Source of the DNA: Acidobacteriaceae bacterium
GTDB taxonomy: Bacteria; Acidobacteriota; Terriglobia; Terriglobales; Acidobacteriaceae
Length of the DNA: 64,000 nt
Reading direction: 5' to 3'
NCBI GenBank assembly: GCA_003161045.1
Contig: PMPH01000019.1
Coordinates: 1,925-65,924 of the forward strand
Shown: positions 1,913-19,518 of the stretch, piece by piece
Layout: each line of letters begins with the position of its first letter
Numbering within the stretch: position 1 is the stretch's first letter
Position numbers and translations under genes: made by a program
Notes under the pieces: model-generated
Seen by the model: only the letters and a program-made list of their open reading frames with translations
Told to the model about the DNA's origin: nothing
Databases searched by the model: none

Positions 1913-1945
1913 TCCCTGGTCCCAAAATCGGGACCTGGGGCACCC
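1913..1945. repeat. REP-like element, family A (short variant)
   Basis: CCCTGGTCCC-AAAATC-GGGACCTGGGGCACCC; reverse complement of the 6200 copy; lies between convergent genes. Confidence 0.8.
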
Positions 1946-1972
1946 TGCACCCTGAACTCTGAAGTTGGCAGG

Positions 1973-2761
1973 TCAGTGAAGCAAAATCCGCTCGACGGCG
2001 GCGATCAGCCCTGGAATGTCGGAGGGACTCGCTTCAGCGGCGGGCGGCCAGCCTAGATTCCGCAGCGTCTGGCTGGTAATAGGCCCAATGGAGACCGCCG
2101 GAACGCCCGCAAATGGCCACGCAACTCCGGCCATGCGGGCCGCTTCGGCCAGATGGGTTGCGCTCGACGAGCTGGTGAAGGTGGCCGCGTCCAAACCTTC
2201 CGCGAGGGCCCGGCGCAGCCGCTCCGGCGCGGCCTCGGGCAAGACGTTGCGGTAGGCCTCCACCACCTCGACCTCGGCGCCCGCGGCTCGCAGCGCCTCG
2301 GGAATCACATCGCGGGCCACGGCCGCCCGGAGCACCAGAACCCGCTGCCCCGCAACCTGCGCCAACAGCCCCTCGGCCAGGCTTTCGGCCACGTAGGCTG
2401 CCGGGACAAAGGCAATTTTGAATCCCGCCTTGCGCGCCGCCTGGGCCGTTGCCTCGCCCACCGCGGCCACCTGCAACCGTTCAGGCTGGGCAAATTCACT
2501 CCCTGGCGCAATCCCCAACGCCGCCGCCCGTTCGACGAGCGTCCGCACCGCATTGCCGCTGCTCAGAATCAGCCAATCGTAGCTGCCGATCTTGCGCAGG
2601 GCCGCATCCAATGGCTCCAAATTCGCTGGAGGGCGAATCTCCAGCACTGGAACCTCGACCGGCTCGGCTCCCAAAGCACGTAGCCCTTCGCTGAGCTTGC
2701 CAACCTGATGCGCGGCGCGGGTGACCAGAACCCTGCGCCCCGCCAGCGGCAGCACACTCAC
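1973..2761 (-). CDS. hemD: Uroporphyrinogen-III synthase
   Basis: LAGRRVLVTRA, SSGNAV, AVGEATA, FTSSSSA, SIGPITS; overlaps the hemC stop. Confidence 0.93.
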   Translation of the reverse strand: MSVLPLAGRRVLVTRAAHQVGKLSEGLRALGAEPVEVPVLEIRPPANLEPLDAALRKIGSYDWLILSSGNAVRTLVERAAALGIAPGSEFAQPERLQVAAVGEATAQAARKAGFKIAFVPAAYVAESLAEGLLAQVAGQRVLVLRAAVARDVIPEALRAAGAEVEVVEAYRNVLPEAAPERLRRALAEGLDAATFTSSSSATHLAEAARMAGVAWPFAGVPAVSIGPITSQTLRNLGWPPAAEASPSDIPGLIAAVERILLH

Positions 2762-3690
2762 CGCGAGCCTCCGGTTGCGGCCTCGAGCAGCGGCCCCGCT
2801 CCGGCTTCGATCAGCCTCTGCGCCGTCCGGCGGCCCAAGGCTATGGGGTCCGCGTCCGTGTGCGGGACGCGTTCATAAACCCGCACTGCTCTCCCGCTCT
2901 CCGGCGCGGCGACGACGGCGAAAATCTCCCACGCGCCCGGCTCCGAAGCCGGCCGGAAGTGAATTCCGATGGGGACCTGGCAGCCTCCGCCGAGAGCCGC
3001 CAGCGCCGCCCGTTCGAGGGTCACGGCAAAGCGCGTGGCCGCGTCGTCGAGGAAGGCAACCGCCGACCTCGTCGCCGCGTCGCCCTGGCGGGTCTCGATC
3101 CCGAGAGCCCCCTGCCCCGCAGCCGGGCAAAAATCCTTCGGCTCCAGCCGTTCGCGGACCCACTCGGTCTTTTCCAGGCGATCGAGGCCGGCGGCAGCCA
3201 GCAGAATCGCATCGACCTGGCCCTCGGCCAGCTTGCGCAGCCGCGTGTCCACATTGCCGCGAAACTCCTGCGCCGCAATGTCGGGCCTCAGCGCCTTCAA
3301 CTGCGCCCGCCTTCGCTGGCTGCTGGTGCCCACGCGCGCCCCCTGGGGAAGCGCGGCCAGATTCGCAAATCTCTCCGAGACGAAGACGTCCCTCGGGTCC
3401 ACTCTCGGGGGCGTCGCGGCCAGCAGAAACGGCTCCGGCAACTCAGTGGGCAAATCCTTCAGCGAGTGCACGGCCAGGTCCACTCGTCCGGCGGCCAGCG
3501 CCTCCTCGATCTCCTTGGTGAACATTCCCTTGGAGCCAACCTGGGCGAAGGTGACCTCTTGCAGCCGGTCACCGGTAGTCTTGATCATCTCGATTTCGAC
3601 CGAATGCCCCTGGCCCCGGAGCAGCCCGGCAATGTGGTTGGCCTGCCACAGGGCCAGTTGCGAACCGCGGCTGCCGATGCGCAGGTTCAT
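2758..3690 (-). CDS. hemC: Hydroxymethylbilane synthase
   Basis: RIGSRGSQLALWQA, KGMFTKEIE, AVHSLKDLP, GTSS.RR, RGNVDTRL, GGGCQVPIG. Confidence 0.97.
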   Translation of the reverse strand: MNLRIGSRGSQLALWQANHIAGLLRGQGHSVEIEMIKTTGDRLQEVTFAQVGSKGMFTKEIEEALAAGRVDLAVHSLKDLPTELPEPFLLAATPPRVDPRDVFVSERFANLAALPQGARVGTSSQRRRAQLKALRPDIAAQEFRGNVDTRLRKLAEGQVDAILLAAAGLDRLEKTEWVRERLEPKDFCPAAGQGALGIETRQGDAATRSAVAFLDDAATRFAVTLERAALAALGGGCQVPIGIHFRPASEPGAWEIFAVVAAPESGRAVRVYERVPHTDADPIALGRRTAQRLIEAGAGPLLEAATGGSR

Positions 3691-5138
3691 AGGCGGACCG
3701 CCCCGCTGCCTTGGTTCACTACCGCTCCTTCAGCTTTCTCTTTTTCAGCATTCCCCGCGCTCACCCGGCCATCGGCCGCGGCCGTGTTCGGTTCGTTCAC
3801 CTGGCCTGCTCCGGCGGGCTCCTGGCCTGCTCCGTTCTCCTGGCCGGCTCCGGCGGGCAGCGACCACGCCTCGCAGAGAGCCTCCACGCGGGCGGCATTG
3901 TTTTCGCGGGCCGCCTGTTTGAGCGCCTGCATCGGCGGATGAAGAAATTTGTTGACCAGCCCCCGGGTCAGCGCCTCGATGGCCGCCACCTGCTCGGCGC
4001 TCAACAAGCCCAGCCGGCTCTGCGCCCGGTGCAGCTCCGCCTGGCGAATCTCCTCGGCCTGCTGTTGCAAGGCCACAATGGCCGGCGAGACGTTCACTGC
4101 GCGCTGCCGCTGGTGGAAGCGATCGACCTCGCCGGCAATCAGCGCCTCGGCGCCGGCGGCCTCGCGTCCGCGTTCGGCCATGTGCGCGGCGGCCACCTGC
4201 TGCAGGTCGTCGATGTCGTAAACAAAAATTCCCTCCAGCTTTCCCATCTCCGGGTCCACGTCGCGGGGCACGGCAATGTCGATGAAGAACATCGGCCGGT
4301 TGCGGCGGCGATGGAGAAAGGCCTGGCCGTGCTCGCGGCCGAAGATCGAGTGCGGCGCGCCGGTCGAGCTGATAACGATGTCGGCCTGGCTGGCCGCCTC
4401 ATAAAGCTGGTCGAATGGGATTACCTGGCCCGCAAAGCTCTCTGCCATCCGCCGCGCGCGCTCCAGGGTCCGGTTGGTCACCAGAATCGCGCCTGCCCCC
4501 TGCTCGACCAGATGCCGCGCCGCCAATTCGCTCATCTTGCCCGCGCCCACCAGAAAAACCGTGCGCCCTTCCAGCGATCCAAAGATTTTGCGGGCCAACT
4601 CCACGGCGACCGAGGCGATGGAGACCGAATTCGAGCCGATTTCGGTCTCGGAACGGACTTTTTTGGCGGCGGCAAAGGCGCTCTGCAGCAGGTGTTCGAG
4701 CTGGCCTCCCACGGTGCCCGCAGCGTGGGCCACGGCGAAGGCCTCCTTGACCTGGCCAAGAATCTGCGGTTCGCCCACCACCATTGAGTCCAGGCTGGCG
4801 GCCACGCGGAACAGGTGCCGCACGGCCTCCCCATCGCAATGCGCGTAAAGGTGAGGGGCCAGCAGCAATGGGTCCAGGCCAAAATGGCGATGCAAAAAAG
4901 CGGTCAGCCCGGCCGTGGGCGACTCCTTTGCCGCCTGCCGTTCCACTCCCCCCTGCTCTTCCACGGCGGCCAAAATCTCCACGCGGTTGCAGGTGGAGAC
5001 GATCATGCACTCGGTCACGCCCGGCACGGCGGCCAAGGCGCGCGTGGTCTCCGGCAGGTCTTCGCGCGAGATCGCGATCCGCTCCCGCAGCGCGATGGGC
5101 GCAGTCTTGTGGTTCACGCCAATGAGAACCAGGTTCAT
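3687..5138 (-). CDS. hemA: Glutamyl-tRNA reductase
   Basis: GVNHKTAP, STCNRVE, SLDSMVVGEPQILGQVK, GAGKMS, DIAVPRD; true start MNLVLIG at 5138 overlaps the ccsA stop. Confidence 0.96.
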   Translation of the reverse strand: MNLVLIGVNHKTAPIALRERIAISREDLPETTRALAAVPGVTECMIVSTCNRVEILAAVEEQGGVERQAAKESPTAGLTAFLHRHFGLDPLLLAPHLYAHCDGEAVRHLFRVAASLDSMVVGEPQILGQVKEAFAVAHAAGTVGGQLEHLLQSAFAAAKKVRSETEIGSNSVSIASVAVELARKIFGSLEGRTVFLVGAGKMSELAARHLVEQGAGAILVTNRTLERARRMAESFAGQVIPFDQLYEAASQADIVISSTGAPHSIFGREHGQAFLHRRRNRPMFFIDIAVPRDVDPEMGKLEGIFVYDIDDLQQVAAAHMAERGREAAGAEALIAGEVDRFHQRQRAVNVSPAIVALQQQAEEIRQAELHRAQSRLGLLSAEQVAAIEALTRGLVNKFLHPPMQALKQAARENNAARVEALCEAWSLPAGAGQENGAGQEPAGAGQVNEPNTAAADGRVSAGNAEKEKAEGAVVNQGSGAVRL

Positions 5139-5989
5139 CGCGGACCGTACCTGTGCACCTGGCTGAAGACGTTGGCCGCCAGCACGGCGAGCATCACCAG
5201 AAAAACCGCGCCAGCCAGATAAGCGGCCCGGCGGCCGCGCAGGCCGGCCCGGCGACGGACAAAAAGCAGGATGACGTAGACGATCCACAAGACAAACGAG
5301 GCGATGACCTTGGGGTCGCGGAAGTAAGCCGCGCCGAGGGCGGTCTCCTGCGCCAGAACCGAACCGATGACCAGGCCGACGGTCATGCAGGGAAAGCCGA
5401 ATTCCAAGGTCGCGTGGGCGATGCGCTCCAGGGTGTCGAGCGGCGGCAGCCAGTCGAGCGGCGGCTGCCAACCCAGCGGCAGCCGCCAGAGCTTCTCGCC
5501 GGGCCTGCGCTTGCTCTTCAGGCGGCGCTCCTGGACGAGGTAAAGCACCGAGGCCAGCAGGCTGAAGCAAAGCGCCACATAGGCCGCCAGCAAGGCCGCG
5601 ATGTGGGCCACCAGCCAGCCGATGCGCACTCCAGCCGAAGGGAAGGTATAGCGGTCCGGGCCCAGCGAGGGCACGAAAATCACGAAAAATGTAATCGGTA
5701 AAGCGAAGATTCCCAGCGAGATGGCATCGTAAAACGACCAGACCAGGAAGAACACTCCGGCCACGGCGAAGCCCAGCAGCGACTCCACCTCGCGCACTCC
5801 CACCGGCATCCAGCGATGGGCCTGGACCAGCATTTCGACGCACGATACAAAGTGGAAGAAGAAGGCCATGCCGGCCAGGTGGACGCAACTCCGGCGCCAG
5901 CGCGTCAGTCCGTGGAGCACGGCCGGAAAGACGGCGACAGAGGCCGCCGCATAGAGAATCGCCGCAACTCGGAGCCAGAGCAGGTACAT
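5135..5989 (-). CDS. ccsA: Cytochrome c assembly protein (CcsA/HemX family)
   Basis: About 8 hydrophobic helices, LYLVQERRLKSK, LPPL..LER, DPKVI motifs; typical position upstream of hemA. Confidence 0.85.
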   Translation of the reverse strand: MYLLWLRVAAILYAAASVAVFPAVLHGLTRWRRSCVHLAGMAFFFHFVSCVEMLVQAHRWMPVGVREVESLLGFAVAGVFFLVWSFYDAISLGIFALPITFFVIFVPSLGPDRYTFPSAGVRIGWLVAHIAALLAAYVALCFSLLASVLYLVQERRLKSKRRPGEKLWRLPLGWQPPLDWLPPLDTLERIAHATLEFGFPCMTVGLVIGSVLAQETALGAAYFRDPKVIASFVLWIVYVILLFVRRRAGLRGRRAAYLAGAVFLVMLAVLAANVFSQVHRYGPR

Positions 5990-6025
5990 TTGCTCTTCAC
6001 CTTACTGTTGAAACAGACAACAGAC

Positions 6026-6041
6026 TGTGATGCAAATCACC
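6026..6041 (-). promoter_or_regulatory. CRP/FNR-family box upstream of ccsA-hemACD
   Basis: TGTGA-TGCAAA-TCACC, centred at -41.5 relative to a candidate -10 TAAGGT (minus strand 6004-5999). Confidence 0.6.
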
Positions 6042-6134
6042 AAGCGGAACCGGACCCGGCTTTTGCCGCTCTGGCGCGGCTTCGTTCCCAATGCTCCAGA
6101 TCAATCTTGGAACCTGCCTAAAATTCGATTTCCT

Positions 6135-6238
6135 GTGAAGGGTACGGGCTTTAGCCCCCGAGGGAGGTTTTTCACTACCATTTGCATTCCGGCAGATGCG
6201 GGTGCCCCAGGTCCCGCTTTTGGGACCTGGGATTCCAC
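6135..6238. repeat. Adjacent family B (6135-6165) and family A (6200-6238) REP-like elements
   Basis: GTGAAGGGTACGGGCTTTAGCCC; GGGTGCCCCAGGTCCC-GCTTTT-GGGACCTGGGA. Confidence 0.8.
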
Positions 6239-6316
6239 CATACTCCACTCTGCAAACGCCGCGGTTTCATCGCGGCCGGGGTGGAACTCGCCGCCTCATT
6301 CCGTTCTGGATCAGTA

Positions 6317-7801
6317 TTATAGGTCCCGGTAGTTACCGTACGATTCGTTCAGAATCTCCACCGGGTGAAGAACTTTATAGGGCAGCGCCTGGTTGAACTG
6401 GATGCGGCAGCTCAGGCAGTCGCACAGCAGCTTCTCGGGATCAATCTTGACGATCTTGTCCATGAGCGGCCGCCCCATGGCCAGCGAGGCGTGGTGGAAG
6501 CCCCTCTTAAGGCCCATGATGCCCGAGATTCCGCAGCAATCGTAGGTTCCGCCGACCGCCTCGACCGAACTCTGCGGCACCAGGCCGAGCAGCTCCGCCC
6601 AGGGCTGTCCCATCTTCTGCTGCTTCAGGTGGCAGGGGGCGTAGTAGGCCATGCGGCCGGTCACCGGCCCCAGCTTCAGGTTCAGTTGGCCGTCGCGGTG
6701 CAGCCGCGTCAGGTACTCTCCCAGGTCGAAGGTATGGCTGGCGACCTTGATCCGCTTGAGCCCGTTGAGCGGGGCGAAGTAGCTCTGATCCCGGAGCAGC
6801 CCCTCGACAATCATTCTCAGCGGCAAAAAGGGGCGCAGGCCATGGGAGACCATCCGGAGCGGCGTGGAGGGCCGGTCTGGATCTAAAGGATGCTCTGAGG
6901 GAGGGGCATGAAACCCTTCGTTCAACTGCGCCTCGATGCGCCCGATGGGGATTTTGAGCACGTCGCCGCCGTATTCAGCCTGGAGCTTTTTCACCATGGC
7001 GCGAAAGTCGTCGGAAAAGTAAGCGCCGTCGCTGAACATGTCCTTCAGCATGTAGCTGCAGGTGGGGCAGGAGCAGACGATATCGTAGCCCTCGTCGATG
7101 GCCTCGCTGAGTTTTTCCAGATTGAACGCGGCCTGCTTGAAGGTGAACTTACGGTCTCCCTCCAGCAGGCTGGGCATTCCGCAGCACTTCTGCTCGGGAA
7201 GGTAGACGTTGATTCCATTCTGTTCCATCACCTCGACCGCGGCCCTAGCCACCTCCGGGAAGTAGTACCGCGCCGTGCAGCCGGCGAAGTAGGCTACCTT
7301 CCTGCCGGAGGCCTCCCGCTTCCGGTCGAGTCCGCGTTCTTTCACCCAGGCCGAAAAGCCTTCCGAGGGTATGGCGGGAAACTTGCGGGCGGGATGAATC
7401 CCCGTCAGCCGCTTGAAGAACCCGAAGGCGGTTTTATTTTCCAGAAACCGGTTGGCCAGTTGCGGAAAGGCGCCGCAGATCCTTCCCACCAGTTGCACGT
7501 CCTCGAGCACGCGCAGGCTGGGCTTCAGCCCCTCCCGCGCCACGAATCCGTCCTTTGCCCGCCGGATGTTGGCGCGCTCCCCAGGACAGGGGCACAGCCC
7601 GCACATATTGCACAGATCGACGAGCAGCCGCAGATCCCGCGGCGTGATCGGCTCATTTCCCTCATGTTCCTTGTCGTAAAGCTGATAGAGCCGATGAAAG
7701 AACAGGCAGGGCATATCGTCGACGATGTCGCGGCAGTAGCCGCAACTGGCGCACGACTCGATCACCTTGCGGGTGATGCTCTCCGGGGACTCATCCGTCA
7801 T
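6317..7801 (-). CDS. GlpC/HdrD-like Fe-S oxidoreductase (2x 4Fe-4S plus two CCG domains)
   Basis: CASCGYC..C, CNMCGLCPCP; YFAGC..CCG..SCPTC; YAPCH..CCG..DCLSC..Q; HPVEIL C-terminus. Confidence 0.85.
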   Translation of the reverse strand: MTDESPESITRKVIESCASCGYCRDIVDDMPCLFFHRLYQLYDKEHEGNEPITPRDLRLLVDLCNMCGLCPCPGERANIRRAKDGFVAREGLKPSLRVLEDVQLVGRICGAFPQLANRFLENKTAFGFFKRLTGIHPARKFPAIPSEGFSAWVKERGLDRKREASGRKVAYFAGCTARYYFPEVARAAVEVMEQNGINVYLPEQKCCGMPSLLEGDRKFTFKQAAFNLEKLSEAIDEGYDIVCSCPTCSYMLKDMFSDGAYFSDDFRAMVKKLQAEYGGDVLKIPIGRIEAQLNEGFHAPPSEHPLDPDRPSTPLRMVSHGLRPFLPLRMIVEGLLRDQSYFAPLNGLKRIKVASHTFDLGEYLTRLHRDGQLNLKLGPVTGRMAYYAPCHLKQQKMGQPWAELLGLVPQSSVEAVGGTYDCCGISGIMGLKRGFHHASLAMGRPLMDKIVKIDPEKLLCDCLSCRIQFNQALPYKVLHPVEILNESYGNYRDL

Positions 7802-8130
7802 TTTTCGCCCTCACTGCGGCTTGCCTGGCCTGAACCGCGAATCCAGGACAGTGAATCCAGGCGGCCATCAGAGCCATCTGGCTGTTGACTCGCGCCCAGC
7901 CACGGCGAGCCCAGCTCCAGCAGCGGGGTCCGGAAGAACCTGAAATTGGTAGAAGCGGGAACCCATGGCGGGCTGTGGTGCGCTGGGTGCATAATTAAAG
8001 GATTGCAACTCCGCGCAAACGCTTCGGTTAAATGTGGGCTGCACACGATCGCCATGGAAACTTTCGTGTGCAACCCACCACAGCCAGCCAACTCCGCGCG
8101 AATATAAGAACTGGCGGCCGTTCTTGTAGT

Positions 8131-8146
8131 AGCAATTAGCCTGCCA
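8131..8146 (-). promoter_or_regulatory. sigma54 -24/-12 promoter for the CCG-protein gene
   Basis: Minus strand TGGCAGGCTAATTGCT matches TGGCA-N6-TTGCW. Confidence 0.75.
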
Positions 8147-8373
8147 TAAAGCCTCCGCCGTCCCATTTGCGTTCACCGGCAGCGCATTCTCCTTTGGAAA
8201 ATCTCTGCGCACCTGCTCCGGGGCTGAGTGCAGCGGCCTAACAGCAGCAAAAAACAGACTTTAATCTCATCAAACTGGTCTCCGGCTTCTCCGTTGCGGA
8301 GAACTGGGGTGCAGCCGCTTGATTTTGCCGGATCGCGTGGCTATCAGTGCGGGCAAATCTCGCTCAAAATATT

Positions 8374-8409
8374 TGTCACGATTCGTGACAGTCGCTCCAT
8401 TTCGTGACA
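8374..8409. promoter_or_regulatory. Tandem upstream activator sequence (bEBP enhancer)
   Basis: Perfect palindrome TGTCACG-ATT-CGTGACA (8374-8390) plus a second site CGCTCCA-TTT-CGTGACA 19 bp later. Confidence 0.75.
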
Positions 8410-8603
8410 GATGTTTTGAATCAAACTGGACGAAAATCCTCTTTGAGTGAGGCGCATTCAGCAAGGAAGCAGCTCGCCGGGCAGGCGCAAAACAGTAAAT
8501 TGCTTCATTTTGGAGCGTTTAGCCTACTACTTGCCCATAAATTGAGTCGCGGGGCGCTATTTTCGCAGATCCGGCAACGAGAGAACTCGGAAGGCTGTGG
8601 CTT

Positions 8604-8619
8604 TGGCACGATTCGTGCA
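8604..8619 (+). promoter_or_regulatory. sigma54 -24/-12 promoter for the aor1 operon
   Basis: TGGCACGATTCGTGCA; differs by one base from the promoter at 19503. Confidence 0.8.
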
Positions 8620-8913
8620 GCAGAGAGGACGGCGGGCGCCACAGAGTCCCGGCTGGAGAAACCTCGCGAGGCAGCGAGGGGCATTTCCGGCGCCGGAAAC
8701 AGTTCAGGGTGCAAAGCTTCATCGCTCATGTAAGTCGGTTATGAGTTCTCGCCGGGCATTCTACTTGCTTCTCTCGCGATGCAGCAACATTCTGGATGGC
8801 GAGAGTCAGCGTTACTTCTGTTTCGCAGTTTTCACCGTTGCACGGCCGGCAATTTCGAGAGAAAGCACTTCCTCTGCGGATTGACCGGGTTGCAACTGCA
8901 TCAAGGAGACACT

Positions 8914-10650
8914 ATGGAAATGGATAAGATTTGGCGTGTAAACCTGTCGGACCTGAGCGTCAAGAGCGAGCCAGTTCCGGCAGCGTGGGCTGGCCTCGGC
9001 GGACGGGCATTGACCTCGACGATTGTGGCGGCGGAAGTACCTCCAACCTGTCACCCGCTAGGACCGAATAACAAGCTGGTGTTTTGCCCCGGCTTGCTGA
9101 CCGGAACGGTCGCCGCGGATTCCGGGCGGCTTTCGGCGGGCGCCAAGAGCCCCTTGACCGGCGGCATCAAGGAGAGCAATGTCGGCGGCACGGCCGGGCA
9201 GATGCTGGCCAAGCTGGGCGTCAAGGCGCTGATCATTGAAGGCCATCCGACCGACGGCAAGTGGCACGGACTCTACCTCAACCAGGAAGGCCTGCGGATC
9301 GAGGAAGAGACCGAGACCCTCGGCAAGGGCAACTACGAGTCGGTCCAGATTCTGAATGAGCGCGTCAACAAGAGAGTTGGCGTGGTCGTTTGCGGGCCCG
9401 CCGGCGAGATGAAGATGCTGACCGCGAACATCTCCGTCAAGGATCCTGACAGCCATATCCGCAGCATTGGACGCGGTGGTTTGGGTGCGGTGATGGGCTC
9501 CAAGAAGCTGAAGTTCATTGCCGTTGACGCCAGCGGCGCGACCGGCATGCCGATTGCCGACCCGGAGAAGTTCAAGGCCGCTGGCAAGGCCTGGGCCGAT
9601 GCCCTGATGGCTCATGGCGTGAGCGGTTCGGCGCTGAAGACCTACGGCACCAACATCCTGATCAACATCCTGAACGAAGCCGGCGGCCTGCCGACGCACA
9701 ACTTCACCGCGGGACAGTGCAAGGAACACGATGCTTTCTCCGGCGAAACGATGCACGACACCATCGTCAAGCGCGGCGGAAACCCGTCACACGCTTGCCA
9801 TCCCGGCTGCGTCATTCAGTGCTCGCAGATTTACAACGACGCGGAAGGCAAGTACCTGGCCTCCGGCCTTGAGTACGAGACGGTCTGGGCCCTCGGCGCC
9901 GACTCCGGCATCGCGAATCTGGATCAGATCGCCGAAGCCGACCACATCATGGACGATCTTGGTGTGGATTCGATCGAGACCTCGGTCATGTTCGCCGTAG
10001 CCATGGAGGGAGGCGCCATTCCCTGGGGAGATGGAGCTGAAGTTCTCCGCGTTCTCAAGGAGGAAATCGCCAAGGGAACTCCATTTGGCCGCCTTCTGGG
10101 CGCCGGCACCGAGGCAGTTGGCAAAGCCTATGGCCTGACCCGCGTTCCGGTGGTCAAGCACCAGGCCATTCCGGCCTATGATCCGCGCTCGGTCAAGGGC
10201 ATCGGCATCACCTATGCAACCTCGACGATGGGCGCCGACCACACCTCCGGCTATACCATCGCCACCAACATCCTGGGCGTGGGCGGACACGTCGACCCGT
10301 TGAAGAAGGACGGACAGATCGATCTGTCGCGCAACCTGCAGATTGCCACCGCCTCGGTTGATTCGACCGGCATGTGCATCTTCGTCGCCTTCCCGGTACT
10401 GGATAGCGCGGAGTGCTTCCAGTCGCTGCTTGATCTGATCAATGCGCGTTACGGCATTGCTTTGACCGGCGACGATGTGGTCGGCTTGGGCAAGTATGTG
10501 CTCACGACCGAGCATAAGTTCAATTTGGCTGCCGGCATGACGAACAAGGACGACAGACTGCCCGAGTTCTTCGAGTACGAGCCGGTTGCTCCGCACAACG
10601 CTGTTTGGGATTTCACCCCCGAAGAGATCGACAGCTACTGGAACTTCTAA
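8914..10650 (+). CDS. aor: Tungsten-dependent aldehyde:ferredoxin oxidoreductase family protein (AOR1)
   Basis: KSPLTGGIKESN, GPAGE, GRGGLGAVMGSKKLK, CHPGCVIQC, LEYET, DDLGVDSI, YDPR, GADHT, DSTGMC, DDRLP; RBS AAGGAG before ATG 8914. Confidence 0.93.
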   Translation: MEMDKIWRVNLSDLSVKSEPVPAAWAGLGGRALTSTIVAAEVPPTCHPLGPNNKLVFCPGLLTGTVAADSGRLSAGAKSPLTGGIKESNVGGTAGQMLAKLGVKALIIEGHPTDGKWHGLYLNQEGLRIEEETETLGKGNYESVQILNERVNKRVGVVVCGPAGEMKMLTANISVKDPDSHIRSIGRGGLGAVMGSKKLKFIAVDASGATGMPIADPEKFKAAGKAWADALMAHGVSGSALKTYGTNILINILNEAGGLPTHNFTAGQCKEHDAFSGETMHDTIVKRGGNPSHACHPGCVIQCSQIYNDAEGKYLASGLEYETVWALGADSGIANLDQIAEADHIMDDLGVDSIETSVMFAVAMEGGAIPWGDGAEVLRVLKEEIAKGTPFGRLLGAGTEAVGKAYGLTRVPVVKHQAIPAYDPRSVKGIGITYATSTMGADHTSGYTIATNILGVGGHVDPLKKDGQIDLSRNLQIATASVDSTGMCIFVAFPVLDSAECFQSLLDLINARYGIALTGDDVVGLGKYVLTTEHKFNLAAGMTNKDDRLPEFFEYEPVAPHNAVWDFTPEEIDSYWNF

Positions 10651-10661
10651 CCACCCCTGAC

Positions 10662-10707
10662 ACCTGGGCCGCAACGGAGATTTTTTCCCGCGCGGCCCAG
10701 GTTTTTT
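10662..10707 (+). terminator. Rho-independent terminator/attenuator between aor1 and moaD
   Basis: ACCTGGGCCGC...GCGGCCCAGGT followed by a T run. Confidence 0.75.
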
Positions 10708-10751
10708 CATTGCAGCGTCATGTAAAATGAGCCAGAGCGCGGAATTCACCT

Positions 10752-10976
10752 ATGCAGGTTCAAGTCAGACTTTACGCTACCTTTCGCAACGACAGATTCA
10801 ACGAGCAGATGCGGGATTATCCGCCGGGCACGACCATCAAAAATGTGCTCGATGATCTGAAGATCGAGGAGTCACTGGTCGGCACGCTCTTTGTCGATTT
10901 CAAGTACGCAACCTCGGATCAGGAACTTCATGAGGGCGCCAATCTCGGCATCTTCCCGGTAGTCGGAGGAGGATAG
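10752..10976 (+). CDS. moaD: MoaD/ThiS family sulfur carrier
   Basis: 74 aa, VQVRLYATFR, C-terminal IFPVVGGG. Confidence 0.88.
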   Translation: MQVQVRLYATFRNDRFNEQMRDYPPGTTIKNVLDDLKIEESLVGTLFVDFKYATSDQELHEGANLGIFPVVGGG

Positions 10977-10979
10977 CCC

Positions 10980-12005
10980 ATGCCGGAAGTCTCTTTCAAC
11001 GATTATTACTCGCGCCAGATTCTCTTTCGCGGCATCGGGGCCGAGGGTCAGCGCAAGCTCGCGGATGCGCGCGTGGCCATCGCCGGCTGCGGGGCCACCG
11101 GATCGGCCATCGCCTCCCTGCTGGCGCGCGCCGGGGTGGGATTTCTGCGCATCATCGACCGGGATTACATCGAGCCCAGCAATCTGCAGCGGCAGACGCT
11201 CTTCGACGAGGCCGACGCGGCCCAGTTTCTTCCCAAGGCGGCGGCGGCGGCCCGAAGGCTTTCGCAGTGCAACTCCCAGGTGACGATCGAGCCGCAGATC
11301 GAGGATCTGACGCCCGGCAATGTGGAGAAGCTGCTGGGCGACTGCGCGCTGATCATGGATGGGACCGACAACTTCGAGACCCGCTACCTGATCAACGACT
11401 ACGCCATTTCGAAGGGCATTCCCTGGATTTATACCGCGGCCATCGGCAGCGTGGGCGTGACGATGAACATCCTGCCGGGCGAGACGGCCTGCGTGGCCTG
11501 CATGTTCCCCGAATCGCAGCGTGGCGCGGGCGAGACCTGCGACACCGCCGGCATTCTGAACGCGGCGGTCACCTTCATTGCCGCCAATGCTGCCGCCGAG
11601 GCCCTGAAGTTCTTCGTTGGATCGAAGGATCTGATGCGGCGCACCCTGCTCACCCAGGATCTCTGGTGGAACGATCACGCCGAGATTCCCGCCGCCACCC
11701 CCAGGGAGGATTGCCGGTGCTGCCAGCAGCGGGAATTTCCGCACCTTTCCGGGGAAAACCGGCCGCACATCTCGCTCTGCGGCAGAAATTCCGTGCAGAT
11801 TCACGAAAAGAGCAAGGTGATCGACCTGGCCGGGCTTGAGCAACGGCTGGCGGCGCACGGCGCGGTCCGCCGGAATGAATTCGCGCTGCGTTTCTGGCGC
11901 GAGCCCTACGAGATGACGATCTTCCCCGACGGCCGGGCCATCATCAAGGGAACCACCGACATAGGTATTGCTCGCAGCCTGTATGCCCGGTTTGTGGGCG
12001 CCTGA
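10980..12005 (+). CDS. moeB: MoeB/ThiF family adenylyltransferase
   Basis: YSRQI, GCGATG, DRDYIEPSNLQRQ, DGTDNFETR, CxxC pairs. Confidence 0.9.
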   Translation: MPEVSFNDYYSRQILFRGIGAEGQRKLADARVAIAGCGATGSAIASLLARAGVGFLRIIDRDYIEPSNLQRQTLFDEADAAQFLPKAAAAARRLSQCNSQVTIEPQIEDLTPGNVEKLLGDCALIMDGTDNFETRYLINDYAISKGIPWIYTAAIGSVGVTMNILPGETACVACMFPESQRGAGETCDTAGILNAAVTFIAANAAAEALKFFVGSKDLMRRTLLTQDLWWNDHAEIPAATPREDCRCCQQREFPHLSGENRPHISLCGRNSVQIHEKSKVIDLAGLEQRLAAHGAVRRNEFALRFWREPYEMTIFPDGRAIIKGTTDIGIARSLYARFVGA

Positions 12006-12093: not shown

Positions 12094-14118
12094 GTGCTTA
12101 CGCCGAAGAATAATCTCGTTGTTCAGAGCGCATGGCAGCAGTACACTGCGGGCGCGTCGCTTGACGTCCGCCACCTGAGCCCTGAGATTGCCAGTTCCTG
12201 GCAGCGTTGCCAGAACCTGAACGTCGATCCCTTGCGCACGGCCGACAGCGAGATTGACCGCAGCGAACTCAAAGAGCGGCTGCATCAGCACCGTTCCCTC
12301 GTCAAGATCGCCCGGCCGGTGATGGAACGGCTCTACGAGTTCGTCAAAGGCACCGGATTCCAGATTGTGCTGAGCGACGAAACCGGCTACCTTCTCGACG
12401 TCATCGGCGACCCCGAGGTCACCTCCCGCACCAGCGAGAATCAGTTGTGTCCGGGCGGAAACTGGAGTGAGCCGTCGAAGGGCACCAACGCCATCGGCAC
12501 CGCCATCTTCGAGCGCAAGCCGGTGCAGGTCTTCGCCTCCGAGCACTACTGCCAGACCAACCACTTCCTGGTCTGCTCCGCCGCGCCGATTTTTTCCGCC
12601 GAAGGCCAGATGGCCGGTGTGCTCGACCTGAGCGGCGATTACCGCGCCTCCAATGTGCACACCCTGGGAATGGTGGTGGCCGCGGCCGGGGCCATCGAGA
12701 ATCAACTGCGCCTTCAGTATGTTACCGACCAGCTCCGCACCGCCTACCGCTACTCGAAGATTCTGCTCGATCATATGTCGGATGGGCTGATCTCGGTCGA
12801 TCACCGGGGGATTATCACCGAACTCAACGCCAGGGGAGCGGGGATTTTTAGCGTGGACCCCAAGGCGGTCAGAGGGAGGCACGTCACCCAGTTGACCGAT
12901 TGCCAGATTCCCATGCTCCAGCTGCTGAACGACGGCGCCGGTTACGAGGAGAAGGAAATTGTCTGCAACCGCTCGGGGAAGAAGCTTCGCAGCTCGGCTT
13001 CGCTGCTGCGCGACGACAATGGGTCGGTGATCGGCGCGGTCGCCCTCTTCCACGAGATCGACCGCTGGAGGACAGCGGCCAAGCAGCATTCCCTTCCCGC
13101 GCGCCGCAACACCTTCGACGATATTGTGGGCCAGAGTGCGGCCATGAACGAGTTGAAGCGGCAGGCGATGCTGGCGGCGGGCAGCTCCTCGACAATCCTG
13201 CTGGAAGGCGAGAGCGGCACGGGCAAGGAATTGATTGCGCAGGCCGTTCACAACGGCGGACAGAGGAGCGGAGGGCCGTTCATCGCGGTCAACTGCGCGG
13301 CCCTGCCGGAGTCGCTGATCGAAAGCGAGCTCTTCGGCTACGAGGAGGGCTCGTTTACCGGAGCCAAACGGGGCGGGCAGGCGGGCAAGTTCGAGATGGC
13401 CGACGGCGGAACGCTGTTTCTGGATGAGATCGGCGACATGCCGCTGAGCGCGCAGATGAAGCTGCTGCGGGTCATACAGGAGCGCAGAGTGGCCCGCATC
13501 GGCACCGCAATCGAGCGCCAGGTCGACATTCGCATCATCGCCGCAACGCTGAAAAACCTGAAGCTGGAGGTAAAGGACGGCCGCTTCCGCCAGGACCTCT
13601 ACTATCGGCTGAATGTTCTCAGCCTGCGCATTCCGCCCCTGCGCGAACGGCGGGAGGACATACCGCAGTTGACGCAGCACCTGGTGGAGAAAATCTCGCT
13701 GCGTTTGAAGATCGAGCCCAAACAGTTTGAGGATGGCGTGCTGGAGAGATTCAAAGCCTATTCCTGGCCGGGCAATGTGCGCGAACTGGAGAATGTGATC
13801 GAGCGCGCAATCAATCTGGCCGACGACGATTTGCTGTTGCGCGCGGCTTACTTCAACCTGGGCGATCTGGATGCGGAGCCGGCGGGAGCTTCATCGCCGG
13901 AAGGGACTCCGGTGCGGAATCTGGCCGATCTGGAGAGAGAGATGATCTGCAAAGCGGTTGCCTCCTACGGAGGCAAGATTCACAAGGCCGCCATTTCGCT
14001 GGGAATCAGCCGCAACACGCTCTATCGAAAGATGAAGGAATACGGAATCGGCGACACCGCGACACCGGAGGCAGGGGCGCAGGTGGACGCGGCGGAACCG
14101 GTCACGGCAGGGCGCTAA
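12094..14118 (+). CDS. sigma54-dependent activator, GAF-PAS-AAA+-Fis HTH (AcoR/AorR-like)
   Basis: [23 protein letters not shown] (AcoR-type GAF); [49 protein letters not shown]. Confidence 0.95.
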
Positions 14119-19276: not shown

Positions 19277-19312
19277 TGTTACATTTTGAGACAAATGTTC
19301 CATCTTGCAACT
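19277..19312. promoter_or_regulatory. Tandem upstream activator sequence (second copy)
   Basis: TGTTACA-TTT-TGAGACA (19277-19293) and TGTTCCA-TCT-TGCAACT 19 bp later. Confidence 0.7.
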
Positions 19313-19447: not shown

Positions 19448-19518
19448 TGGCAAAGCCTTTGCTGCCTGCGCCGGCAAATAAAAAGCCGCACTATTGCGAA
19501 TTTGGCACGGTTCGTGCA
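19448..19518 (+). promoter_or_regulatory. Two tandem sigma54 promoter matches for the Fe-S/aor2 operon
   Basis: TGGCAAAGCCTTTGCT (19448-19463) and TGGCACGGTTCGTGCA (19503-19518). Confidence 0.75.

Follow-up and report, generated by a model that had tools for sequence, protein, structure and literature searches.

An HdrD-like CCG protein encoded opposite a tungsten aldehyde oxidoreductase in an acidobacterial island: a candidate disulfide or persulfide reductase

We examined one gene and its control region in a 64,000-nucleotide stretch of DNA (hereafter, the window) from an Acidobacteriaceae bacterium (assembly GCA_003161045.1, contig PMPH01000019.1). The source is a metagenome-assembled genome (MAG) of 2.72 Mb and 85% completeness, in which the gene is present in a single copy. 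We refer to it as the CCG gene, after the domain that it encodes twice, and to its relatives as the CCG family. It is divergent from AOR1, which encodes a tungsten aldehyde:ferredoxin oxidoreductase (AOR). A sequence-only reading of the window had described positions 6317-8146 as a stand-alone GlpC/HdrD-like protein co-regulated with AOR1. This interval contains one gene and its control region rather than one long protein. Positions 6317-7801 on the minus strand are the coding sequence of a 494-aa protein, with an N-terminal eight-cysteine dicluster domain, two complete CCG domains and a long variable linker, and a GAGGG Shine-Dalgarno sequence stands directly 5' of its ATG. The remainder, 7802-8146, is non-coding and represents the leader and promoter. 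A 122-aa open reading frame (ORF) at 7798-8166 had no support as a coding sequence and was rejected.

The Pfam model PF02754 (CCG) matches the 494-aa protein twice (E 3.4e-20). Each CCG domain has the full set of five cysteines, C175/C206-C207/C245/C248 in the first and C390/C422-C423/C462/C465 in the second, so that the protein shows the HdrD/HdrB-type arrangement of two CCG domains with five cysteines each, in the order C..CCG..CxxC. None of the ten varies in an alignment with 18 homologues that are 51-71% identical, which bears out the two CCG domains proposed from the sequence. In the same alignment, the N-terminal helical domain has eight invariant cysteines in two CxxCxxC groups: C17-x2-C20-x2-C23-x8-C32 and C64-x2-C67-x2-C70-x-C72. 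The two 4Fe-4S motifs proposed earlier thus stand as regards the cysteines and their grouping; they are not of the canonical form, as the fourth cysteine of each is spaced differently (x8 and x1) and none of the Pfam Fer4 models fires on the protein. No membrane helix was found across the 494 residues, where the highest 19-residue Kyte-Doolittle mean was 0.95. An AlphaFold model built on the homologue alignment had a predicted local distance difference test (pLDDT) score of 83, with residues 298-324 forming a disordered loop. The linker between the CCG domains varies in length across the family, and 17 of its residues are specific to the clade of the window. The insert noted earlier between these domains is present, at about 87 residues relative to E. 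coli GlpC instead of the roughly 70 aa first given.

Sequence searches of the PDB detected only HdrB (phmmer E 1.3e-4), while the solved-structure neighbours of the model in Foldseek were LutA, several HdrB chains and M. smegmatis EtfD, the last over the whole architecture. The fold is HdrB-like (8rvu_B and 5odc_B; E 3e-6 to 1e-5, probability 1.0, TM-score about 0.6 on HdrB). As in HdrD/HdrB, both CCG domains have full CXnCCGXmCXXC sets, and as in HdrD there is an N-terminal dicluster ferredoxin-like domain. Unlike HdrD/HdrB, the protein is bacterial and lies outside methanogenesis, the spacing of the fourth cysteines is non-canonical, and the inter-domain linker is long and variable. In addition, no HdrE-type cytochrome and no HdrA or HdrC partner was noticed among the recurring neighbours of the gene, for which no dedicated HdrE, HdrA or HdrC model was run. 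The top match for the double-CCG core is LutA (LldE; 9a6l_A, E 1.2e-8, TM-score 0.79 on LutA), which has no N-terminal dicluster domain and has LutB and LutC as partners; no lutB or lutC was seen beside the CCG gene. EtfD (9ojn) is the only solved structure that matches the ferredoxin-like domain together with both CCG domains (TM-score 0.48 on the query), but it is 742 aa long with extra length that our protein lacks, and the CCG gene has no etfAB neighbours. On the sequence and the model taken together, the CCG protein most resembles HdrD, with a putative dicluster relay that would feed two complete CCG sites.

Members of the CCG family are automatically named GlpC in databases. E. coli GlpC (b2243) has the same order of domains, and GlpC models are the top NCBIfam matches of the 494-aa protein, but the scores fall below both cut-offs (PRK11168, 226 versus 278 bits; TIGR03379, 131.9 versus 279.9). 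E. coli GlpC shares 22% identity with the protein and has a correspondingly shorter inter-CCG linker. GlpC proteins are characterised by two canonical ferredoxin motifs, CxxCxxCxxxCP, ahead of two CCG domains. In its first CCG domain, E. coli GlpC is missing the leading cysteine of the CxxC; the CCG family has all ten. No tblastn match for E. coli GlpA or GlpB was found in the window or in 161 homologous loci, and GlpA (TIGR03377) was not found in the 85%-complete source genome, which bears out the earlier statement that there is no glpA/glpB or other flavoprotein partner. Because of the sub-threshold scores and the lack of glpAB partners, the identification as GlpC was rejected.

The divergent region between the CCG gene and aor1 spans 1.1 kb and contains three elements: two promoters and a palindrome. 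A predicted sigma-54 -24/-12 element of the CCG gene, TGGCAGGCTAATTGCT, was located at 8131-8146 on the minus strand by a pattern scan and by its conservation in related contigs. It has one mismatch to TGGCAC-N5-TTGCW, and its GG and GC (GG-N10-GC) are invariant in seven aligned sequences. The predicted sigma-54 promoter of the aor1 operon, TGGCACGATTCGTGCA, was located likewise at 8604-8619 on the plus strand. About 214-228 nt from each promoter lies a putative shared enhancer (8374-8409), comprised of the perfect palindrome TGTCACGATTCGTGACA at 8374-8390, which is unique in the source genome, and a half-conserved second site at 8393-8409. Both promoters and the enhancer are fixed in five related peat metagenome contigs, whose CCG proteins are 69-93% identical, while the flanks have diverged. 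The source genome also encodes rpoN (278 bits, contig C63), and the gene of a sigma-54 enhancer-binding protein in the aor1 operon is the presumed reader of the palindrome. The proposal that the CCG gene has its own sigma-54 promoter and has an enhancer in common with aor1 is therefore matched by predicted elements that are present and conserved. From these elements we infer that the sigma-54 promoters are used and that the two genes are co-regulated. Strong -24/-12 matches (at least 10 of 11 positions) upstream of CCG family members were limited to 4 of 146 loci, all in the clade of the window, and for this reason the CCG promoter looks like a lineage-specific recruitment into the AOR1 regulon.

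AOR1 occupies 8914-10650 on the plus strand and belongs to the AOR sensu stricto clade, with PDB matches at E 4.5e-91 (9mqx_D) and 1.3e-85 (1aor_A). It is followed on the same strand by a 74-aa MoaD/ThiS-like sulfur carrier that ends in GG (10752-10976), by a MoeB/ThiF-type adenylyltransferase with Pfam and NCBIfam matches (10980-12005), and by the enhancer-binding protein (12094-14118; GAF-PAS-AAA+-HTH). Beyond the latter are two MoeA genes, MoaA, an Fe-S subunit with AOR2, an ABC transporter and a third MoeA. The 20-kb island around the CCG gene is dominated by moaA, moaD, moeB, three moeA genes and tupABC. Among AOR1 orthologues of Acidobacteriota and of a Rhodoferax MAG (loci L167-L172 and L165), a MoaD/ThiS-like gene is nearly always directly 3', and MoeB, TupABC and MoeA are frequently present as well. 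The AOR1 module thus seems to include a sulfur carrier of its own. Modules of AOR1 and MoaD that come with Tup and MoeA genes, or that have a divergent sigma-54 activator, are also found where there is no CCG gene.

The link to AOR1 extends beyond the window. The divergent AOR1/CCG pair is kept in the closest relatives (L082, L086, L087 and L093), and the pair and its promoter/enhancer layout are conserved down to 69-72% protein identity. In Pleomorphomonas, the order on one strand is AOR1-moeB-moaD-like-CCG-moeA, where the stop of the moaD-like gene overlaps the start of the CCG gene. AOR1 lies 8 kb from the CCG gene in Anaeromyxobacter and 4 kb from it in the deltaproteobacterial MAG locus L064. 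In six betaproteobacterial genomes of the clade with hyp operons (see below), the contig that carries the CCG gene also has an AOR1 orthologue (66-69% identity), at a distance of 9.5-29 kb. In a FastTree phylogeny of 158 sequences, an AOR1 orthologue stands within 1.5-29 kb of the CCG gene in at least four separate, well-supported clades. Only 6 of 80 genome loci have AOR1 within flanks of at most 10 kb, which is an under-count because AOR1 of the hyp clade sits 9.5-29 kb away. Whole-genome searches found an AOR1 orthologue of at least 50% identity in 38 of the 44 genomes that have a CCG gene. The CCG gene was found in none of 690 background genomes. Neither it nor AOR1 was found in 40 relatives of the source genome, in 150 family-mates of the Rhodoferax MAG or in 100 family-mates of a Sideroxyarcus MAG, and it was absent from all 400 genomes of a phylum sample. 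The tie to AOR1 suggested by the sequence-only reading is thus upheld by the conserved pair, by the clades with AOR1 nearby and by the co-occurrence. Co-occurrence holds in one direction, as genomes with the CCG gene mostly have AOR1, and fails in the other, as genomes with AOR1 often lack the CCG gene.

Two of these settings have further features. In Pleomorphomonas, the MoaD-like proteins (L059:9651-10004, L076/L080:9654-10004, L077:9396-10004) have a VALVPPG motif followed by about 30 more residues, with no GG end. The L064 region (1932-11485) encodes on one strand a LarB-like and a LarC-like protein, AOR1, an unknown 202-aa gene, FIST, a PAS histidine kinase/receiver and the CCG protein, followed by a transposase; it looks mosaic.

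The exact palindrome TGTCAC-N5-GTGACA also occurs 5' of hypA-hypB-CCG and of ferredoxin-AOR1 in betaproteobacterial islands. Seven distinct sites were found in four genomes (L017:8491-8507; L016:8598-8614; L031:888 and 8632; L110:397 and 8508; L165:1354-1370), compared with 0.12 expected in 2.06 Mb. No good sigma-54 -24/-12 match was seen beside these palindromes.

The protein database contains over 1,500 full-length relatives of the CCG protein, the nearest of its homologues being from Acidobacteriota, and at one genome per species the family amounts to 516 loci among 185,579 species. Contexts were studied at 160 loci, the best 80 of the 516 genome loci and the best 80 metagenome loci, by tblastn with the window proteins, de novo clustering of neighbours, and Pfam and NCBIfam searches with cluster representatives; counts are from 158 rows. 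The commonest setting of the CCG gene is an ars-type operon on the same strand (55/158 rows). Its neighbours there are ArsR, Acr3 (TIGR00832, above cut-off), a thioredoxin-type ArsC, an ArsP-like permease, ArsM (above cut-off) and GNAT, together with thioredoxin, DsbD_TM, Thioredoxin_3, DGC-domain and PF04060 Fe-S proteins. Occasional additions are a PhnD-like binding protein, a sigma-54 regulator and, together with an NrfD subunit, a TtrA/ArrA-like molybdoenzyme. Several ars operons are ArsR-Acr3-CCG, with no arsC within the flanks examined. The order ArsR-Acr3-(ArsC)-CCG-(ArsP) is seen in anaerobes at L007:6840-10216, L068:8318-11371, L159:2127-6398 and about 50 more loci.

The second setting, at 10 loci, is a lipoyl/thiol cluster with a GcvH-like carrier, two DGC proteins, OsmC, an Lpd-like flavoprotein, a radical SAM protein, a lipoate ligase and sometimes XdhC. 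In Syntrophobacteraceae (L019:2682-6221, L026:705-7295, L035 and L106), the CCG gene follows such a set, which resembles sHdr sets. In the sHdr clusters of sulfur oxidisers, CCG proteins are accompanied by GcvH-like lipoate-binding-protein gene sets. Some CCG family members are similar in having the GcvH-like carrier, lipoate ligase, radical SAM protein and Lpd-like flavoprotein beside them; they differ in being a single polypeptide, in their arsenic/thiol context instead of sulfur oxidation, and in the lack of an HdrA/HdrC set. XdhC adjoins the CCG gene in L029 and L037.

The third setting is the operon hypA-(moaA)-hypB-CCG-hypF, found at 10 or more betaproteobacterial loci alongside a group-4 [NiFe] hydrogenase. 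Downstream of hypF are three conserved genes with the sizes of hypC, hypD and hypE, an identification made by size only. Islands that combine the hydrogenase, the hyp-CCG operon and AOR1-MoaD were observed in betaproteobacterial MAGs and in Propionivibrio soli (L016/L164/L165 (G444:C14), L017, L021, L025, L031, L042 and L054). In the Rhodoferax MAG, whose island neighbours were annotated, there are also XdhC, a Mo-hydroxylase, a flavodiiron protein, an HdrA-like/2xCCG fusion and, 5' of AOR1, the gene of a small ferredoxin. The two large families of neighbours that had no Pfam match, unk27 and unk28, are probably antisense ORFs, since they overlap the gene of the hydrogenase membrane subunit on the opposite strand; they were set aside.

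The sequence-only reading would have been contradicted by homologues that lie beside glpAB-type genes and show no association with aor. We found no glpAB at any locus, and we found an association with aor. A qualification is that ars or thiol-redox operons, and not aor, are the commonest setting of the family. Of the two electron sinks first proposed, a thiol/disulfide pool fits the contexts, while coupling to quinone or the membrane is unsupported, with neither a transmembrane segment nor a membrane partner.

These contexts lead us to favour a reading in which the CCG protein is an HdrD-type disulfide or persulfide reductase, fed by ferredoxin or AOR1 and recruited into the AOR1 regulon. We assign it a probability of about 0.45. 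S-S chemistry is preferred over quinone coupling because the neighbours of the family are thioredoxins, ArsC, DsbD, lipoyl carriers, MoaD/MoeB and Hyp genes. Low-potential electrons would enter via two N-terminal [4Fe-4S] clusters, presumably from reduced ferredoxin or directly from AOR1. They would then pass to the two complete CCG sites, which by analogy with HdrB may hold non-cubane [4Fe-4S] clusters, and an S-S bond of a thiol carrier would be cleaved there. With an enhancer and an activator that would serve the aor1-moaD-moeB operon too, the CCG protein would be made together with AOR1 and act on its reducing side. It might drain AOR1-derived electrons into a thiol/disulfide pool, or it might serve the MoaD/MoeB sulfur-carrier chemistry of the tungsten cofactor, and we regard the two roles as about equally likely. 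The placement within hyp operons and between moeB-moaD and moeA favours the cofactor role; given that placement, a part in maturation or sulfur-carrier chemistry is roughly on a par in likelihood with a catabolic outlet. In favour of the thiol pool are the prevalence of ars settings and the fact that AOR1 can do without the CCG protein. A CCG gene that is nearly always accompanied by AOR1, together with an AOR1 that often occurs without it, fits an optional accessory that runs on low-potential electrons from AOR1 or ferredoxin.

Several observations weigh against this reading. All 12 AOR1-bearing genomes in the 400-genome phylum sample lack the CCG gene. AOR1 therefore works without the CCG protein, which is an optional accessory and not the general electron acceptor of AOR1. 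In the Acidobacteriota clade whose CCG genes have ars or no recognised neighbours, the CCG gene and AOR1 are at least 93 kb apart or on different contigs. AORs are probably common in Deltaproteobacteria, so the co-occurrence there is of little weight. No substrate is encoded beside the CCG gene in the window. The literature searched gave no account of a characterised member of the subfamily, or of a GlpC, HdrD or CCG protein linked to ars or AOR. Finally, GlpC, GlcF, LutA and EtfD are CCG electron-transfer proteins for which, to our knowledge, no disulfide chemistry is known, so the CCG fold does not settle the reaction.

The best surviving alternative casts the protein as a reductase for the maturation or repair of metallo-cofactors instead of a catabolic electron sink. 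It would provide the electrons for steps of tungsten/molybdenum cofactor assembly that depend on thiols or persulfides, for example by reductively resolving a MoeB-MoaD acyl-disulfide or persulfide, and in other organisms it would act likewise in [NiFe]-hydrogenase maturation. In chemistry this alternative overlaps the reading that we favour, and it differs in physiological role. The position between hypB and hypF at those betaproteobacterial loci, several of which have moaA between hypA and hypB, argues for it, as do the translationally overlapping moaD-like gene of Pleomorphomonas, the adjoining XdhC genes and the predominance of cofactor genes in the island of the window. The CCG gene was also retained beside AOR1 once the hydrogenase-linked setting had vanished from the lineage of the window. 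However, the majority of family members belong to ars or thiol operons that have no maturation genes in their vicinity, and AOR1-MoaD modules are common without the CCG gene, which is therefore not an essential maturation factor. We know of no precedent for a CCG protein in molybdenum cofactor or Hyp maturation, which also counts against it. On balance, we consider this alternative unlikely, yet deserving of serious attention.

A GlpC- or EtfD-like subunit that passes electrons from AOR1 or another dehydrogenase to menaquinone at the membrane, with no disulfide chemistry, is improbable. The GlpC models at the head of the NCBIfam matches, the automatic names and the whole-architecture match to EtfD point to such a subunit. 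Against them stand the scores below both GlpC cut-offs, the low identity to E. coli GlpC and its missing cysteine, the absence of glpA/glpB from the source genome, the window and the 161 loci, and the lack of a transmembrane segment, a cytochrome b module or a recurring membrane partner.

It is very improbable that the CCG gene merely landed by aor1 during assembly of the island, with promoter- and enhancer-like sequences that serve aor1 alone: the main context of the family is ars rather than aor, a sister sequence of 64% identity (L099) stands alone without aor, and the whole island is accessory and missing from the 40 relatives, so that joint presence could be a single event, but the -24/-12 element of the CCG gene is conserved amid diverged flanks with strong matches specific to the clade of the window, independent clades repeatedly show linkage to AOR1 or co-occurrence with it, as do three lineages in which neither gene was found otherwise, and the palindrome recurs 5' of hyp-CCG operons.

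The CCG superfamily is well known, and the subfamily described here is, as far as literature searches reach, an uncharacterised variant. Tungsten AORs are usually said to pass their electrons to ferredoxin. For the onward route in non-fermenting soil bacteria, a lone HdrD-like reductase travelling with AOR1 would offer a concrete, testable branch point that could lead to thiol redox or to cofactor sulfur chemistry. The family is frequent in the ars operons of anaerobes, some of which show no arsC in the flanks examined, and what it does there has a bearing on how NAD(P)H-thioredoxin reductase could be dispensed with in powering arsenate reduction or thiol repair. The family also offers a way to test for a connection of tungsten aldehyde oxidation with thiol redox and with arsenic resistance. 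In its widest form, which we hold to be speculative and rather doubtful, the family would be an unrecognised ferredoxin- or AOR-driven disulfide/persulfide reductase that couples aldehyde oxidation by tungsten enzymes to the restoring of dithiols on proteins or cofactors, used as a module in ars, hydrogenase and tungsten-cofactor maturation, and lipoyl systems. If so, tungsten AORs would gain a thiol-directed electron sink not described so far, and the ars islands of anaerobes would gain their missing NAD(P)H-independent supply of reductant. Genetics and biochemistry are feasible, since there are carriers in culture: Pleomorphomonas oryzae DSM 16300, Propionivibrio soli SG131 and Desulfoferrobacter suflitae DRH4.

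On the 3' side of the CCG gene, a CcsB-like gene and then hemA, hemC and hemD follow on the same strand. No intrinsic terminator was detected between the CCG gene and this operon, and read-through into it is possible. A functional tie to haem synthesis was dropped, as the adjacency is confined to the closest relatives.

The 5' leader of the CCG gene (7802-8120, minus strand) is about 315 nt long and includes the Shine-Dalgarno sequence. Within 7950-8125, about 80 nt are near-invariant across contigs with diverged flanks. This block contains a hairpin at 8034-8078 (minus strand) with a 15-bp stem and a CCATGG-containing loop, bracketed by an 11-nt direct repeat, GCGCGGAGTTG, at 8089-8102 and 8006-8019. 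The hairpin block is limited to the clade of the window and is unique in the source genome; covariation support for the hairpin is thin (six sequences, few compensatory pairs). Rfam searches of the window and of the intergenic region gave no match to a family, even when E values up to 1 were admitted, and the leader is therefore no known riboswitch. The block could be an RNA switch or a protein operator. A similar control region precedes the aor2 operon, which has a near-identical candidate sigma-54 promoter, TGGCACGGTTCGTGCA, at 19503-19518. A degenerate copy of the palindrome lies at 19277-19293, about 226 nt 5' of the aor2 promoter, which is also the spacing at aor1.

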